Below are positions 18,001-27,000 of a DNA stretch of 64,000 nucleotides, one piece after another. Location of the stretch: positions 384,001-448,000 of the forward strand of contig CAWKNZ010000002.1 of the NCBI GenBank assembly GCA_963851265.1, written 5' to 3'. Position numbers: made by a program. The DNA comes from an uncultured Gemmatimonadales bacterium. GTDB lineage: Bacteria; Gemmatimonadota; Gemmatimonadetes; Gemmatimonadales; Gemmatimonadaceae. Within the stretch, counting starts at the first letter, position 1; the number at the start of each line of letters is the position of its first letter.

Positions 18001-21000
18001 GTATTTCTCGCTCATCGAGAAATACTTGCGCCCCGTCGACCAGTCACCCGCGACGATGATCGTCGCCGCGGCCTGATGCGAGGGCACCACGCGGCGCGCG
18101 AGGTCGGCCGCGTCGGCCATGATCACGTTCGCGACGGCCACGAACGCGGCGTCGTCGGCGTCGGGGTTCGGCATCGCCGGATTCGGCACGGCGCCGACCG
18201 GATGGTTGTGGTACGTGTTCTGGCCGTAGGGCACGACGCCAGCGGGCACAGCGCCGGCGGCCACAGCGCCGGCGGGCGGGGCGGAAACGTCAGGGGTCGG
18301 CATGCGCTCGCGGGTTGGGCGGTGAGGCGATGCGGAAGCGCGTCCAAGATGTGACGCGTGCCCGCCGTGCGCCCTCAGGCGTTCGGGCGACCCGCCTCGA
18401 ACTGCTGGAGCGAGGCGACGAGCATGCGCACCAACTCCTGCCGCAGCGGCGGTCGCTCCGCCGGCGGCAGCGCCTGGACCTGGAAGAGCACCGCGTGCAC
18501 GGTCTCGACCTGCACCCGTGCCGTCACGTGGCGCTGCGCCGCACCGACCCACGGCATGCGCCGCGCGATGAGTGCCTCGACCCGCTCGACCACGGTCGCG
18601 TGCAGCGCGGCGTCGGCCGCGGCCACGGCGCTGCCGGGCGTGTTGGTCGCACCGTACACGTGCCGGTAGGCCGGGTGCGCGTCGCAGAACGCCGCGATCG
18701 GCTCGACGATCCCGCGCATCATCGCGTCGAGCGGCAGGTCGGCCACCTCGGCCGCGAGCACGGTGTCCTTCAGCTGCCCGAACATCGCCACGTAGCGCAT
18801 CGCCAGCGCCTGCACGATCGCGTCGCGGTTGGGGAAGAACTGGTAGAGCGACCCGACGGACGTCTTCGCGCGCGCCGCGATCGCGTTGGTCGACGCGGCC
18901 TCGACGCCGACCTCCCCGATGACCTCGGCGGCGGCGTCGAGGATGCGCTCGATCCGGCGCTGCCCGCGGTCCTGCTGGGGCACGCGGCGAAGCACGCCCG
19001 CGCCGGCCGCCGCGGCGGGCTCGGTCGCGGCGTCGACAGACGCGGTCGGTAACAGGTCGGCCTCCGGACTCATCCCATCAATGTGAGCGAACACTCGCCT
19101 ATTGACAAGGTGAGCGATAGCTCATATCTAGACGCGAGCAACTGCTCACATGAGCGAACGCTCATGTTCGGAATGATGCCGGTCGCCACCCTTCGCCGTT
19201 CCTTCGATGCCCCGCCCGCGTCCAGACCGCCGCCCGCGCGCCTACCCCGTCGCGCACACGCTCTCCCTGCTCGCGATGGCGGCGATCGTCGCCGCGACCG
19301 ACGCCTGCTCGCGAGACGCGCGGGCCGCGGCGCCGCCACCCGCTGCGCCGGCGACGCCGGTCCGCCTCGCGCCCGCCGCCCGAGACACGAGCCGCGCCGC
19401 GATCCGCGCCGGCGGCGTGACCGAGCCACGGGCGACGTCCGACCTCGCCTTCCAGGTCCCCGGGCGCGTCGTCACGCTCGCCGTCGACGAGGGCACCCGC
19501 GTCGCCTCGGGCCAGCTGCTCGCCGCCGTCGACCCGACCGACTACCGCCTGGCCTACCAGCAGGCCGATCTCGCGCGCGCCCGCCAGGCCGACGAACTGG
19601 CCCGCGCGCGCCTGCTCCAACCCTCGGGCTCGATCGCGGCCAACGATTTCGACAAGCTCGACAACGGCGCCCGGCAGGCCGTGGTCGTCCGCGACCTCGC
19701 CGCCAAGCGGCTCGCCGACACGCGCCTCACCGCCCCGTTTGCGGGCACCATCGCGAAAAAGTCGGTCGAGGTTGGCGCGAGTGCCAGCACTGGCACGGCC
19801 GTGCTCACCCTCGTCGACCTCGCGGAGGTGGAGGTGCGCGTGGGCGTGAGCGAGGCCGATGTCGGCCAGGTGCACGTCGGCCAGCCCGCGGCAGTCGAGG
19901 TGCCCGCGTTGGGTCGCACCGTCACGGGCCGCGTCGCGCACGTCGGCGTCGTCGCCGACCCGGCGAGTCGCACGTACGCGGTGAAGGTCGCGCTCCCCAA
20001 CCCGACCGGCGCGCTCCGCGGCGGGATGGTCGCGACGGTCGTGCTACCGACGGGGCGTGCGCGCGACGCGGTCGTCGTTCCGGCCGCCGCGGTCATGCGC
20101 GACGCCGACGGCGTCACGCTGGTCTACGTCTACGCGCCGTCCGAACGGCGCGTCCGCGCTCGGCGCGTCGAGGTCGGCGACGCGCGCGGCGGGAACGTTG
20201 AGGTCGCCCGCGGCCTCGCGGCGGGCGAACCGGTCGTCGTCGGCGGCCAGCAGCGGCTGCGCGACGGGTCCGCGGTGACCGTGCCGGGGGGACGCTGACG
20301 ATGACGTCCCCGACACTCGCGCGCGAGCCGGACGCTCGCCCCCTCCAACGCTGGAACCTGATCCGCGCCGCGCTCGCGAACCGGCAGCTCGTCTACGTGC
20401 TCACGGCGCTCGTCGTCATCTTCGGCCTCACCTCGCTCGTTCGCATGCCGCGGCGGGAGGACCCGAAGATCACGATCCGCCAGGGCCTCGTCCTCGCCCT
20501 CTATCCCGGAGCCACGGCCGAGCAGGTCGAGCGGCAGGTGGCCGAGCCGGTCGAGCGGCGGCTGTTCGCGCACGGCGAGGTGAAGAAGGCCAAGACGTAC
20601 ACCACGAGCCGCCCCGGCGCGCTCGTCGCCAACGTCGAGCTCAACGACGACGTGCGCGACCCCGAGCGCTTCTGGTCCACGCTGCGCCTCGACCTCAACG
20701 AGACGCGCGCGCAGGAGCTCCCGGCCGGCGTCGTCGGCCCGATCGTCAACGCCGATTTCGGTGACGTGGTCGCGGTGCTACTCACCGTGCACGGCCCACC
20801 GGGCCGCTACGGCTCGCGCGAGCTGGCGACCTTCCTCGACCGCATCGAGGACGCGGTGCGCACGCTTCCCGACGTCTCCAAGATCAAGCGCTACGGCGAG
20901 CAGCCCGAGGAGATCGCCGTCACCGCGCGCCCGGAGCGCCTCGCCCAGTACGGCGTCACGACGTCGCAGCTGTTAGGCGCCCTCCGCGCGCGCAACGCGG

Positions 21001-24000: not shown

Positions 24001-27000
24001 CGTCGCGCGACGCGACGACCCAGGACGTCGCGCTCGCGGTCACGCGCCTCTACCTCGGCGCGCTCGCCGCCGAGCGGCAGCACGAGGCCGCGCGGCTGGT
24101 GCTCGCGGCGCGCCGGGCCGGCGCGGGCGACGCCACGCGCGCCGTGGCGGCCGGGCTCGCGCTCGGCACGCGGGCCACCGAGGCGCGCGCGGGGGTGCTC
24201 GACGCCGAGCAGCAGCTCGTCGCGGCCGGCAACCAGGTCGCGGACTACACGGCCGACCTCGCCGAGCTGGTCGGGTGGCCCGCCGACGTGCCGATGACGC
24301 TGGTCGCGCCCGCGCCGCCCGAACGGCGCACCGCGCCCGCCGGCCCCGCGCGGGCCGCCGCGCGCGCGACGGCGACCGGGCGCGAGGCGTTAGGCGCGTC
24401 GACGGCCGACGCGCCCGCGTCCGACGCGTTCGGCGACGCACTCGCGGCGGGGGACAGCGTGCGGCTCGCCGCGCTCGTCCGCACCGCGCTCGACGCGAAC
24501 CCCGAGCTGCGTGCAGCCCGCGCGACGCGCGACGAGGCCGCGAGCGGCGCCCGCGCCGCGCGTGCGGCCTACGTGCCCGAGGTCGCGCTCTACGCGCAGT
24601 ACTACCACCAGACGCTCACCACCGTGCTGCCGCACGACAACGTCACCGGCGGGCTGTCGTTGTCGTGGACGATCGCCGACTTCGGGCGGCGGCGGAGCCA
24701 GGTCGACGCGGCGGCCGCGCGGCAGGTCGCCGCGGGGGAGGAAGCGCGTCGCGCCGAGGAGCGCACGGCGACCGCGGTGGCCAAGGCGTACCGCGCCGTG
24801 CTGCGGGCCGAGCGGCTGTGGGACGCGGCGCAGGCGTCCGCGGCGGCGCGGCGCGACCTCGCCCGCGTGGCAACGGACGAGGGGGCTGCGGGGCTCCGGC
24901 TCGCGTCGTCCCGGGCGGAGCAGGATGCCGCGGCGGCGGTCGCGGACGCGGCGGCGTTCGCGGCAGAGGCGGGGACGCGGGTGGCGCGGGCGGAGTTGGC
25001 GCGGGCCGTGGGGGCCCAGCGTGGGGCGCCCCCTGAAGCTCCGTGAACGCCGCAGGGCACACGCCCCGCGACCTGGCGCATTCGGCACACGGCAGTTGCG
25101 CTCGTCGCATCCACCAGCTGGCCTTCCTCGTGGCGCCGCACGGTATCGCGCGGGTCGTCCGGGATCGGCCGACGGCGCTCCGCCGGGGCTGAACGGGCCC
25201 GCGCCCTGCCCGGCGGCGTGGCCGGGGGGATTACGTCGCGCGGAACGCATCGTCGGCCGGAGTGCCCGCGGCTGCTGCCGACCCGATGATTCACGTCGCA
25301 CTCGCGCTACAAGGGCTCAGCAGACGCGCCCTGCCCCCAAAGCTGCTCGCATCGGGTGACCGACGCCGGCACCGTGGGGTACACTTCGCCGTCACCCGCC
25401 GCCCCCGCTCCGCCCCCCCTATGCCGGCCCTCCCCGAACGCGCCCTCGCCGACGCCGTTGCCCACCGCGACGCGCGCCGCTTCTGCGACGTGGTCCTCCC
25501 GGCCGTCTCGCGGACCTTCGCGATCGGCATCCGCGCGCTCCCGGGGGACCTCGGCAAGGCCGTCCTCACGGCCTACCTCATCTGCCGGCTCGCCGACACC
25601 GTCGAGGACGCGCCCGGCATGACGCCCGCCGCCAAGGCGCCGCTCTTCGAAGCGCTGCTCGACTGCTTCGACGGGCAGGCGGCCGCGGACCGCTTCCCGC
25701 CGATGGCGCATGCCGTCACCGGCGACCCGGCGCACCTCGCGCTCGTCCGCCACGCGGACCTCGTCTTCGGCTACTTCCTCACGCTGCCCGCGGGGACGCG
25801 CCGCGTCGTGCGCCACTGGGTGACCGAGATGGTCACCGGCATGCGCAAGTTCGTCGAGCTCTACCCCGACGGCATCCGCATCCAGACGGTCGAGGAGTTT
25901 CGCGAGTACTGCTACTACGTGGCGGGCACGGTGGGCTACCTGCTCACCGACCTCTGGCACGAGCACTCGCCCGCGGTGGGCCAGGTCACGTACGAGCGGC
26001 TGCGCGAACGGTGCCGCGCGTTCGGCGAGGCGCTGCAGACGGTGAACATCCTCAAGGACGTGGGGCACGACGCCCGCGTCGAGAACTCGATCTACGTGCC
26101 CGAGCAACTCCTCCGCGCCCACGGCAGCACGCACGCGGCCGTGCTCGCGGCCGAGTGCATCCCCGAGACGCGGGCGGCCGTCGGGTCGGCTCATCGAGCT
26201 CGCCTGGGCCGACCTCGACGAGGCGCGCCGCTACCTGCTGCTCATCCCGCGGCGCGCGGTGCCGATCCGCCTCTTCTGCGCGCTGCCCTTGTTCTACGCC
26301 TACGCCACGCTGCGCGACCTCGCCCGCACCTCGGCGATGCTCCTGCCCGGCGGCGGGGTGAAGATCTCGCGGCGCGAGGTCAAGGCGCTGCTCGTGACGG
26401 GGATGCTCGTCGTCGGCAGCAACGGCCTCGTGCGCCGGCTCGTCGAGCGCGTGCGGCAACGGCCGTTCACGCTCGCGTTAGGCGGGAGCCGGTAGGCGAG
26501 GCACCGCGCTCAGCGCAGCGCCCGCCGCACCCCGTCGATCGCGTCGAGCAGTCCGGCCGCACGCTCTCCCGGGCGTGAGGATGCGGCCGGCCCGGCGAGC
26601 CCCCCCTCGACGCGGTCGAGCAGCGCTTCCAGCGCCGCGCCGCCGCGCGCCACCGCGTCGCGGTGCCCGCGCGCGATCACCCACGCCGCGGCGCCGCCCG
26701 CGAGCACCGGAACCGCCGCGACCGGCGCGACCACCGCGAGCAGTGCGTGCGCGACGACCCCCGCGCCGAGCATCCCCGTCCCCGCGAGCACGCCGCCACC
26801 CGCCGCCACCCCGCCCGCGGTGAGCCGCTGCCGGCGTGCGCCGCCGAGGTCGAGCTCCAGCCGCAGCAGCGTCCGCCCGGTGTCGGCGGGCAGCGCCACC
26901 GCGCGCACGCCGCGCGCGCGCCGCAGCCCCGGCGTGCCGCCGCCCAGTCGCAGCCCGCGTGTCAGATTCCCGACGAAGTCCGTGCGCGCGTCCCACGCCG

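Follow-up and report, generated by a model that had tools for sequence, protein, structure and literature searches.

A conserved RND-outer-membrane factor fusion gene of a Gemmatimonadales bacterium and its predicted processing as a polyprotein

Can the inner-membrane permease and the outer-membrane channel of an efflux pump be made as one polypeptide, and how would the channel then reach the outer membrane? The question is raised by a single gene in the window, i.e. the whole 64,000-nucleotide stretch of DNA analysed here, which comes from an uncultured Gemmatimonadales bacterium. The host is a soil bacterium.

One reading frame, conserved among relatives

The fusion ORF (20301..25046, forward strand) starts with ATG and contains 1581 codons without a stop, with same-frame third-position G+C throughout. 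Its product matches the Pfam family ACR_tran at aa 21-1034 (E 2.7e-176) and OEP as two stretches (E 4.4e-40). This agrees with the first-pass annotation, which had placed an RND transporter and an outer-membrane factor (OMF) in one open frame; conversion of the genome-level OEP matches (G000:C2:407649-408275 and 408465-409013) also returns exactly the OEP bounds that it gave, aa 1117-1325 and 1389-1571. A long ORF is little proof at 75% G+C, where a spurious 1134-aa ORF overlaps the fusion gene in a different frame, and weight is therefore placed on the shared frame and on the relatives.

A stop codon or frameshift lost in assembly could merge two ordinary genes, or the gene could be decaying. 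Long frames that arise by chance at this G+C would fit such an origin, as would relatives from databases and MAGs that are frameshifted or cut down (P0026, P0127, P0128, L036, L078 and L081), although in L078 and L081 the fused junction is intact and the frameshift lies further upstream. This explanation is nevertheless scarcely credible. Third-position G+C reaches 0.90-1.00 in all 90-nt windows over 23361-23676 in the frame common to both domains and is highest in this frame across the linker, and the linkers between TM12 and the OMF vary in sequence and in length (28-91 aa) among relatives, yet keep the frame. Stop-free frames spanning the junction occur in seven other Gemmatimonadaceae loci, namely in G073, G039 (two), G037, G019, G066 and G036, the last being broken by a contig end, and 8 of 81 genomes match, including G000. 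The frames reported earlier for G039, G037 and G019 are thus among them, and the fusion in G073, a member of the same genus, has 1590 aa and 76% identity. The fused junction is kept in 71 of the 78 informative related genome loci, which belong to several phyla, among them Geobacteraceae of lower G+C and isolates, for instance Oryzomonas japonica Red96. OMF and RND share one stop-to-stop frame in 69/80 related loci, L078 and L081 add two that retain the fused junction, and two of the 80 end at contig edges. These comparative data refute an assembly artefact and bear out the earlier statements that the fusion is widespread and not an assembly slip.

Protein databases give the same picture. Of 8000 proteins scored in a junction-spanning search, 619 reached E<=1e-10, and among the 120 matches listed, 119 carry both PF00873 and PF02321 and 99 have at least 1400 aa. 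With the RND half as the sole query, PF02321 is present in 99 of the best 120 database proteins. The RND-OMF fusion is real and conserved, and both of its halves are complete. Full-text literature searches found no description of this layout, in keeping with the earlier view that it is undescribed.

The two halves and the neighbouring genes

The RND half (aa 21-1034; 20361..23402, +) is a complete TriC/MexK-like permease that covers ACR_tran positions 2-1020 of 1021. The PDB matches are 6vej_A (E 4.7e-136, aa 18-1033 on chain residues 6-1007), MexK 9xwg_A (E 4.5e-135) and AcrB (E about 2e-62). Asp421-Asp422 lie in TM4 and Arg949 in TM10. The adaptor gene that the first-pass annotation had noted upstream encodes a periplasmic membrane-fusion protein of 363 aa (19207..20298, +), and its stop codon is separated by 2 nt from the ATG of the fusion gene. 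It matches TIGR01730 RND_mfp (E 4.2e-62) and HlyD_D23 (E 4.3e-27). A divergent gene (18375..19094, -) encodes a TetR-family regulator of 239 aa (TetR_N E 1.4e-14; TetR_C_15 E 2.6e-18). In the divergent intergenic region (19084..19165, no strand assigned), a TGAGCGnnnGCTCA-type palindrome occurs three to four times, detected in a repeat search as families D1/D2 and inverted pairs I1-I4, and these copies may serve as TetR operators.

The predicted mature OMF (aa 1103-1581; 23607..25043, +) contains its OEP repeats at 23649-24275 and 24465-25013, and its fold begins at Leu1115. The repeats are separated by an Ala/Pro-rich low-complexity insert (aa 1337-1386; 24309..24458, +) with low pLDDT (model residues 287-315), which alignment A1 shows only in the closest relatives. 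The AF2 model of the OMF part, built from 8 sequences only, has a pLDDT of 80.1 and a pTM of 0.71, with a low-confidence signal helix. Foldseek matched it to TolC, OprM, TOprJ1 and CusC (E about 1e-14 to 1e-15, TMt 0.65-0.81), and the OMF has a full four-strand barrel contribution, as in an outer-membrane protein. VIA-align superimposed model residues 52-513 on TolC 1-410 (Z 27.8-31.4). Model residue 52, i.e. Leu1115, pairs with residue 1 of mature TolC (residue 23 if the numbering is that of the precursor), which lies in the equatorial domain of the TolC structure. The segment ahead of Leu1115 therefore stands where TolC has its signal peptide.

A predicted export signal between the halves

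The junction has the order ...VPVLYVLV-ESRRERRQARRAHG-TAAAPAAPGVAPEPL-RRAASTIAPGLGSGVGSALTAMALACLALGAARVPALGA-QEVATETRAARS-LTLDEAV.... It begins with a linker (23403..23489, +), predicted to be cytoplasmic, that consists of the Arg-rich loop ESRRERRQARRAHG (aa 1035-1048) and an Ala/Pro-rich spacer (aa 1049-1063); the 31 residues past TM12 contain eight Lys/Arg against three Asp/Glu. The signal-peptide-like segment follows (aa 1064-1102; 23490..23606, +), with the n-region RR, a Gly/Ser stretch, the core ALTAMALACLALGAA (1081-1095) and the c-region RVPALGA. The putative signal peptidase I site, Ala1102/Gln1103 (PALGA/QEV; 23604..23609, +), is deduced from the clade-conserved xLGA/Q, with the versions ALGA/Q (P0001), SLGA/Q (L002), QLGA/Q (P0004) and LARG/Q (P0005).

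Column by column, the segment lines up with A-x-A c-regions in 99 homologues. Its position is equivalent to that of the signal peptides of TolC, of the OMFs encoded separately in the same genome and, with their initial Met, of split relatives. Three free OMFs of this genome have signal peptides that end in ARA/Q, with L[ST]LxxA coming after a further 5-20 residues. The six split loci (L018, L019, L021, L022, L023 and L057) belong to Solibacteraceae and Bryobacteraceae. Their RND frame stops 10-15 aa past TM12 and the OMF gene starts 11-20 nt further on or with a 1-nt overlap; the OMF begins with Met, Lys/Arg and a hydrophobic core, and carries a small-x-small site 4-7 residues ahead of [LIM]TLxxAV. 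In L023, RND and OMF lie in one frame with a lone stop between them, and the OMF N-terminus reads MRVRILSLFLLAALSAASVPA/ESRRVTMSEAV.

Conservation of the motif was assessed by our own residue counting. In 59 compact junctions, read in a fixed register from LTL without picking of sites, the predicted -1 residue (position -5) is Ala in 54 and Gly in 3, compared with 10.8% Ala in the whole protein, and the predicted -3 residue (position -7) is Ala in 41, Val in 5, Ser in 4, Leu in 3 and Thr in 3. Gly/Pro/Gln at -8/-9, Leu/Ala/Val/Ile at -10 to -22 and Lys/Arg at -27 to -32 complete a pattern of a 13-residue hydrophobic core with upstream Lys/Arg, as in a standard signal peptidase I substrate. A second set of 57 compact junctions, taken from genome DNA and possibly overlapping the first in organisms, has Ala (45) or Gly (4) at -5 and Ala (40) or Val (7) at -7, with both features in 48/57. 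A (-3,-1) site was also picked in 99/99 junctions, a count that provides no independent evidence because the picker is biased to Ala. The earlier description of the hydrophobic stretch as signal-peptide-like is upheld by this n/h/c layout, the conserved small residues and the shared position. Together, the comparisons support the assignment of aa 1064-1102 to the place of the ancestral Sec signal peptide of the OMF, with a conserved putative cleavage motif, and show that the segment has been kept over a long evolutionary span.

Since the export signal of the channel lies between the halves, export probably entails cleavage of the chain into two parts. We consider the gene to encode a polyprotein that is cleaved by signal peptidase I, with a probability of roughly 0.7 for this prediction; two signal peptidase I genes are present in the genome. 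The ribosome would produce a single RND-OMF chain, of which the 12-helix permease would enter the membrane during translation, its C-terminus facing the cytoplasm. The Arg-rich loop would be retained on the cytoplasmic side, while the ancestral signal peptide would re-enter the translocon in an N-in/C-out orientation and thread the OMF into the periplasm. Cleavage after Ala1102 (ALGA/QEV) would release an OMF of about 479 aa to take the usual outer-membrane route and trimerise, and would leave the RND with the signal segment as a short 13th helix. Together with the adaptor, whose gene lies 2 nt upstream, these products would form an ordinary TetR-controlled tripartite efflux pump of the TriC/MexK type. 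We infer the topology, the cleavage, the fate of the 13th helix, the 1:1 coupling of supply and the substrates; pump activity of the fusion and a benefit from 1:1 supply are likewise conjectural.

In the query clade, the predicted -3 residue is Leu instead of Ala, Arg occupies -7 relative to the predicted cut, and a Gly/Ser/Ala-rich uncharged run precedes the core, so that 30 residues in total are uncharged and could form a stable anchor. The OMF might then stay permanently joined to the pump, with the segment as a lasting 13th helix, and engineered adaptor-RND fusions are tolerated by such pumps, according to PMC4754349 and PMC6447562. A lasting anchor would, however, have no need for small residues to be conserved at -1 and -3, for a preceding Gly/Pro or for a core of only about 13 residues; moreover, the full barrel contribution and the correspondence of the first structured residue to mature TolC residue 1 speak against a tether. 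PMC4754349 gives an inter-membrane distance of about 23 nm, a periplasmic RND portion of 7 nm and a gap to the OMF tip of about 6 nm. In this fusion, an uncleaved tether would comprise the 19 residues aa 1096-1114, with a maximal reach of about 6.7 nm; in compact forms it would comprise about 9 residues and could stretch to about 3 nm at most. Both fall short of an OMF tip that is separated from the inner membrane by about 13 nm. The predicted cut precedes the start of the structured OMF by only 4-12 residues, a stretch too short to bridge the periplasm, and the uncleaved duct that the first-pass annotation had allowed for is therefore disfavoured and very unlikely.

Alternatively, translation of the working OMF could begin separately at a start codon within the junction, with the fusion as a read-through by-product or second isoform. 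The split relatives show that a start at this place is workable, and the internal start that the annotation had allowed for is weakened but keeps some likelihood for this gene, whose segment offers in-frame starts, GTG 23532 and ATG 23553. An in-frame ATG occurs in 31/69 related junctions, ATG, GTG or TTG of any kind in 55/69, and one subgroup keeps ...LEPAAMG.... An internal start as the source of free OMF is nonetheless unlikely: in the same-genus orthologue L002, the whole stretch that separates TM12 from the predicted cut lacks in-frame ATG, GTG and TTG, and no junction column conserves Met (maximum 5/59). If translation began at Met1085, the product would lack a charged n-region and its core would be limited to 10 residues. 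No Shine-Dalgarno-like motif accompanies the candidates in the parsed Gemmatimonadaceae (L001, L002, L003, L005, L007 and L009), where the LEPAAM codons of L007 (CTC GAG CCA GCC GCG ATG) lack GGAG, and one precedes an in-frame start in 1/69 other junctions, in a test that is weak in that only 2/6 split relatives pass it.

Relation to known systems

The predicted polyprotein resembles the HAE1-type pumps TriABC-OpmH and MexJK-OprM/OpmH of Pseudomonas aeruginosa, to which its RND half is far nearer (6vej_A, 9xwg_A) than to AcrB. It shares with them the Asp-Asp pair of TM4, the Arg of TM10 and an adaptor and RND under a repressor. The Pseudomonas pumps use an OMF encoded at another place, whereas here it is part of the same polypeptide; TriABC has two adaptor genes, compared with one in this locus, and the scores fall short of the curated NCBIfam cut-offs. 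The split relatives belong to the same RND clade (55-59% identity to the query RND half), have the same gene order adaptor-RND-OMF, and place the signal peptide identically relative to TM12 and LTLxEAV. They differ in the RND stop, the spacer or overlap, and the OMF Met, and the layout of L023 differs from the fused one by nothing but the lone in-frame stop.

E. coli TolC and other TolC-type OMFs (1ek9, 5ng5_C, 9tg4_A) have the same protomer fold (about 394 aligned residues, about 18% identity) and likewise two OEP repeats, and the predicted cut site of the fusion lacks a lipobox cysteine. Unlike in TolC, the putative signal peptide is internal, past a 12-helix transporter, and the insert adds about 50 residues.

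The closest mechanistic precedent is a respiratory-complex polyprotein, in which a polytopic inner-membrane protein and, downstream of it, an internal signal peptide belong to one chain and signal peptidase frees the periplasm-facing part that comes next. The part released there stays at the inner membrane, whereas the fusion would release a barrel protein of the outer membrane. A covalent linker between pump components is tolerated in the engineered adaptor-RND fusions used for AcrAB-TolC cryo-EM, as PMC4754349 and PMC6447562 indicate. Those fusions are artificial and uncleaved, whereas the natural one joins the RND to the OMF and bears a predicted cleavage signal.

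A pump and its duct in one reading frame

The inner-membrane RND permease and the TolC-type outer-membrane factor (OMF, the duct) are encoded by one ATG-started frame of 1581 codons (window 20301-25046, + strand), with the RND domain (ACR_tran, aa 21-1034) first, two OEP repeats after it and no stop codon between them. The first-pass annotation had described this single open frame with both domains, and the repeats that it placed at aa 1117-1325 and 1389-1571 were recovered in a genome-level search. Absence of a stop is in itself weak evidence of fusion, because a genome of ~75% G+C yields long frames by chance. 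Third-position G+C in the fusion frame stays at 0.90-1.00 in each 90-nt window across the junction. A spurious Arg-rich ORF of 1134 aa (window 21632-25036, +) overlaps the fusion gene in another frame.

The RND half matches Pfam ACR_tran (PF00873) over profile positions 2-1020 of 1021 (E 2.7e-176, 588.6 bits against a cut-off of 28) and has the 12 helices and both large periplasmic loops of the RND superfamily. It aligns to the solved chain 6vej_A (1022 aa) over aa 18-1033 with E 4.7e-136, to MexK with E 4.5e-135 and to AcrB with ~2e-62. The proton relay is complete, consisting of the Asp-Asp pair of TM4 (VVDDAIV, aa 419-425), a basic residue in TM10 (the Arg within VVRNAIILVDY, aa 947-957, window 23139-23171) and the TM11 Arg in the motif GRRRLRPIFLTT (aa 976-987), and the same motifs align in 6vej_A. 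The TM10 Arg, which the RND half has in common with this TriC-like chain, occupies the position of the proton-relay Lys of AcrB. Scores stay under the curated NCBIfam subfamily cut-offs for NF033617 (469.7 vs 1250 bits), NF000282 (388.7 vs 1250), TIGR00915 (335.1 vs 940) and likewise the CzcA-type TIGR00914 (334.5 vs 701, about equal to TIGR00915), and the RND half is therefore named TriC/MexK-like rather than assigned to a curated equivalog.

The OMF half contains the tandem repeats of the outer membrane factor family, each spanning profile positions 1-187 of 187 of Pfam OEP (PF02321; E 4.4e-40). An AF2 model of the C-terminal 518 residues, built from an 8-row alignment (pLDDT 80.1, pTM 0.71), displays the TolC protomer fold, with four barrel strands (within model residues 92-148 and 364-392) and long helical hairpins (151-220 and 226-261, 395-466 and 472-507). 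Foldseek relates the model to TolC, OprM, TOprJ1 and CusC (E ~1e-14 to 1e-15, TMt 0.65-0.81), and VIA-align gives Z scores of 27.8-31.4 to TolC over ~394 aligned residues and of 25-26 to OprM and CusC. The aligned counterpart of residue 1 of mature TolC (residue 23 when the precursor is numbered) is model residue 52, Leu1115 of the motif LTLDEAV. Between the OEP repeats lies an Ala/Pro-rich insert of low complexity (window 24309-24458, aa 1337-1386), which only the closest relatives share and which the model renders with low confidence.

A periplasmic adaptor gene (window 19207-20298; TIGR01730, E 4.2e-62, 210 bits with a cut-off of 94.9), which the first-pass annotation had already placed upstream, stops 2 nt short of the fusion ATG, and the operon thus includes the adaptor expected of tripartite RND efflux systems. 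These systems consist of three separate polypeptides, whereas RND and OMF share a frame here; predicted cleavage of the fusion product would give three polypeptides again, adaptor, RND and OMF. A TetR-family gene lies divergently upstream of the adaptor gene, and between the two a TGAGCGnnnGCTCA-type palindrome is present three to four times (window 19084-19165); these copies are probably the operators of the TetR repressor. A consensus scan of window 18900-25400, uninformative at such G+C, returned no promoter-like site (0.0 expected) and a single terminator-like one (0.9 expected). The flanking genes, for a squalene/phytoene synthase family protein (window 25262-26578, +, E 7.3e-40) and a GAF-domain protein (window 17581-18552, -, E 6.6e-05), revealed no link to the pump.

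Carriers and conservation of the fused form

A search of the family Gemmatimonadaceae matched 8 of 81 genomes, the source genome included. Stop-free frames cross the junction in G073 (same genus, 76% identity), G039 (two frames), G037, G019, G066 and G036 (where a contig end cuts the frame), and G052 carries RND and OMF as separate genes. In the source genome the fused gene is the sole one of its kind among ~10 RND loci and ~12 OMF loci. Two other RND genes there (contig C8, 205000-209699 and 217796-223906) each precede a separate OMF gene on the same strand, so this genome contains both split and fused layouts.

A protein search spanning the junction retrieved 619 proteins at E<=1e-10 among 8000 scored. 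Among the best 120 of these, 119 carry both PF00873 and PF02321, in keeping with the joint occurrence reported by the first-pass annotation, and 99 are at least 1400 aa long. With the RND half alone as query, the OMF family PF02321 is likewise present in 99 of the best 120 matches. In 80 named genome loci retrieved with an unfused relative as bait, the OMF lies in the stop-to-stop frame of the RND in 69, and a fused junction follows an upstream frameshift in 2; the others are truly split (6), ambiguous (1) or cut by contig ends (2). The fused form thus dominates its RND clade (99 of the best 120 proteins; 71 of 78 informative loci). Carriers, as named in the records, include Acidobacteriota, Gemmatimonadaceae, Geobacteraceae, Syntrophobacterales, Nitrospirota, Verrucomicrobiia and one Rhodospirillales MAG, among them the isolates Oryzomonas japonica Red96, Geotalea uraniireducens, Geomonas anaerohicana and Geomesophilobacter sediminis. 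A sequencing or assembly artefact as the source of the fusion is ruled out by these comparative data, and the earlier statements that the layout is widespread and not an assembly slip both hold.

Some relatives (loci L036, L078 and L081; proteins P0026, P0127, P0128 and P0132) have frameshifts or early ends inside the RND or the linker, for which sequencing error, gene decay and natural splitting are all possible causes; such MAG and database entries inflate the apparent count of unfused forms. This also affects an unrooted FastTree phylogeny of the RND half (120 rows, with 99 fused, 19 unfused and 2 unclear; 466 columns), which requires at least 8 changes between the fused and unfused states, and starred branches force 7 of these. 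Of six unfused singletons nested in it, five are doubtful, being truncated or frameshifted calls or having the junction after all: P0125 ends mid-TM12, the ends of P0127, P0128 and P0132 lie within the linker, and P0201 does in fact possess the junction and the start of the OMF. Many independent fusions or fissions are for this reason not claimed. What stands is one coherent split clade of 13, adjoining a fused clade of 17 of Geobacter type. Over ~45% divergence of the RND half the fused state is retained, and the tree, being unrooted, is silent on gain versus loss of the fusion.

A signal-peptide-like segment between pump and duct

TM12 ends with VPVLYVLV at aa 1034 and is followed by an Arg-rich loop, ESRRERRQARRAHG, and an Ala/Pro spacer. 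Then come RR, a Gly/Ser stretch, the hydrophobic core ALTAMALACLALGAA (aa 1081-1095), RVPALGA and QEVATETRAARS, after which the OMF fold begins. In an alignment of 99 long homologues, the linker from TM12 to the LTL motif that opens the OMF fold measures 28-91 aa. A tally in which sites were picked (99/99 with a -3/-1 site) was dropped as Ala-biased, and fixed-register counts were used instead, with positions numbered back from LTL and no choice of site. Among 59 compact junctions (<=34 aa), position -5, corresponding to -1 of the predicted site, is Ala in 54 and Gly in 3, and position -7, corresponding to -3, is Ala in 41, Val in 5, Ser in 4, Leu in 3 and Thr in 3; the overall Ala content of the proteins in this set is 10.8%. 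Gly, Pro or Gln occurs at -8/-9, Leu, Ala, Val or Ile at -10 to -22, and the stretch from -27 to -32 is rich in Lys and Arg. A second set, of 57 compact junctions taken from genome DNA of organisms that may overlap with those of the first, has Ala in 45 and Gly in 4 at -5, Ala in 40 and Val in 7 at -7, and conforming residues at both positions in 48.

The features of signal peptidase I substrates, a positive n-region, a core of ~10-15 residues and small residues at -3/-1, are found in the fusion gene as RR, ALTAMALACLALGAA and PALGA/Q, the predicted cut falling between Ala1102 and Gln1103. Judged by sequence, the compact junctions are those of signal peptidase I substrates, with the n/h/c layout and the -3/-1 rule, and their core of ~13 residues falls short of the length of a stable membrane anchor. 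Predicted sites in the clade of the fusion gene have the form xLGA/Q (ALGA/Q, SLGA/Q, QLGA/Q), besides LARG/Q. The signal peptides of three free OMFs of the same genome end in ARA/Q, followed by 5-20 residues and L[ST]LxxA, and this genome has two signal peptidase I genes. The lipobox of NodT/OprM-type lipoprotein OMFs, [LVI][ASTVI][GAS]C with Cys as first mature residue, does not occur: the sole Cys (aa 1089, MALAC) is part of the hydrophobic core, is preceded by Ala at -3 and has no counterpart in the same-genus orthologue. The score for TIGR01845 is under the cut-off (46.3 vs 210 bits). Sec signal peptides are N-terminal, whereas this segment is found at aa 1064-1102, after 12 transmembrane helices; its internal position is the novelty.

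Its origin is shown by the split relatives. In six loci (L018, L019, L021, L022, L023, L057) the RND ends 10-15 aa past TM12 and the OMF gene begins 11-20 nt further on or with a 1-nt overlap. At the N-terminus of these OMFs, Met is followed by basic residues and a hydrophobic core, and a small-x-small site lies 4-7 residues ahead of [LIM]TLxxAV; the internal segment is thus the OMF signal peptide, retained after loss of the stop and start codons. In the Bryobacteraceae locus L023 (6463-6475), RND and OMF are in one frame and parted by one stop codon plus 9 nt, which leaves this locus a single substitution short of the fused layout. The paralogues L011, L016 and L017 of the source genome had been considered as RND-stop-OMF in one frame and were rejected, since translation past the stop gave only low-complexity tails; not being OMFs, they are uninformative on splitting. 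Free-standing OMF relatives in the protein database are limited to 3 matches at E<=1e-10 in a word-index search for which Ala-rich low complexity is probably a handicap; P0122 and P0123, the best of these, resemble N-truncated or frameshifted gene calls, and P0124 is the only clean free OMF. Taken together, the comparative sequence data indicate that the RND-OMF fusion is real and conserved and has an internal signal peptide.

Probable release of the duct and relation to known systems

The fusion product is probably a polyprotein cut by signal peptidase I, a reading to which we assign a probability of about 0.7. The C-terminus of RND proteins is cytoplasmic. The basic loop after TM12 would accordingly stay inside, fitting the positive-inside rule, and the signal segment would cross in the N-in/C-out orientation and take the OMF out, using the translocon that had just exported the two ~300-residue periplasmic loops of the RND. 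After cleavage, the RND would retain the segment as a 13th helix.

The duct could also remain uncleaved and attached to the pump, an option that the first-pass annotation had kept, but a permanent anchor would have no use for the conserved cleavage motif. Moreover, the tether would comprise 19 residues here (<=~6.7 nm) and ~9 in compact forms (<=~3 nm), whereas a passage of PMC4754349 places the OMF tip ~13 nm from the inner membrane in an envelope of 23 nm. Cleavage is favoured over tethering on both grounds. Separate production of the OMF from a translation start within the junction is improbable. In-frame start codons do exist, GTG (23532) and ATG (23553) in the fusion gene and ATG in 31 of 69 related junctions, but the orthologue from the same genus lacks any such in-frame codon (ATG, GTG or TTG) from TM12 to the predicted cut, and Met is conserved in no junction column. 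A Shine-Dalgarno-like motif precedes a candidate in 1 of 69 junctions, a weak test, since among the 6 split relatives only 2 satisfy it.

A Gemmatimonadota-like subgroup (P0010-P0025, L007) keeps TLEPAAMG right before the hydrophobic core in an otherwise variable linker, which is perhaps left over from the ancestral OMF start. The idea that this subgroup conserves an internal ribosome site with ATG was rejected, as the DNA of L007 reads CTC GAG CCA GCC GCG ATG and lacks GGAG.

In two-membraned bacteria, intrinsic tolerance of drugs and toxins depends centrally on tripartite efflux pumps, and how the three parts of such pumps meet in the right ratio is still debated. An obligatory pump-duct polyprotein, in which co-translational insertion of the pump carries the duct through the same translocon and the duct is released by signal peptidase I beside the nascent pump and leaves behind a functional 13th helix, is proposed tentatively, at odds somewhat short of even. 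If true, tripartite efflux machines would have a distinct route of assembly, locked in stoichiometry and coupled in space, that several phyla have kept. A natural pump and duct gene with a putative built-in cut site offers a handle on coupled biogenesis and raises the question of whether each pump trimer assembles with the duct made alongside. Because the fused form dominates and is accompanied by a few split close relatives, material for working comparisons is at hand, including cultured Oryzomonas, Geotalea and Geomonas strains.

Natural RND-OMF fusions were earlier called undescribed, and the full-text literature searched, outside subscription journals and TCDB, yielded no description; neither did the searched passages of PMC8277102 (within its first 300,000 of 747,818 characters) and of PMC3707914. 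The only fusions to emerge from the search are engineered adaptor-RND ones, in passages of PMC4754349 and PMC6447562. JGI annotation names the natural proteins 'AcrB/outer membrane protein TolC', and they may serve as a template for single-gene pump constructs in structural work. They would also exemplify co-translational export of an outer-membrane protein that follows a polytopic membrane protein. The nearest mechanistic precedent is reportedly the cytochrome b/c1 polyprotein of Bradyrhizobium.
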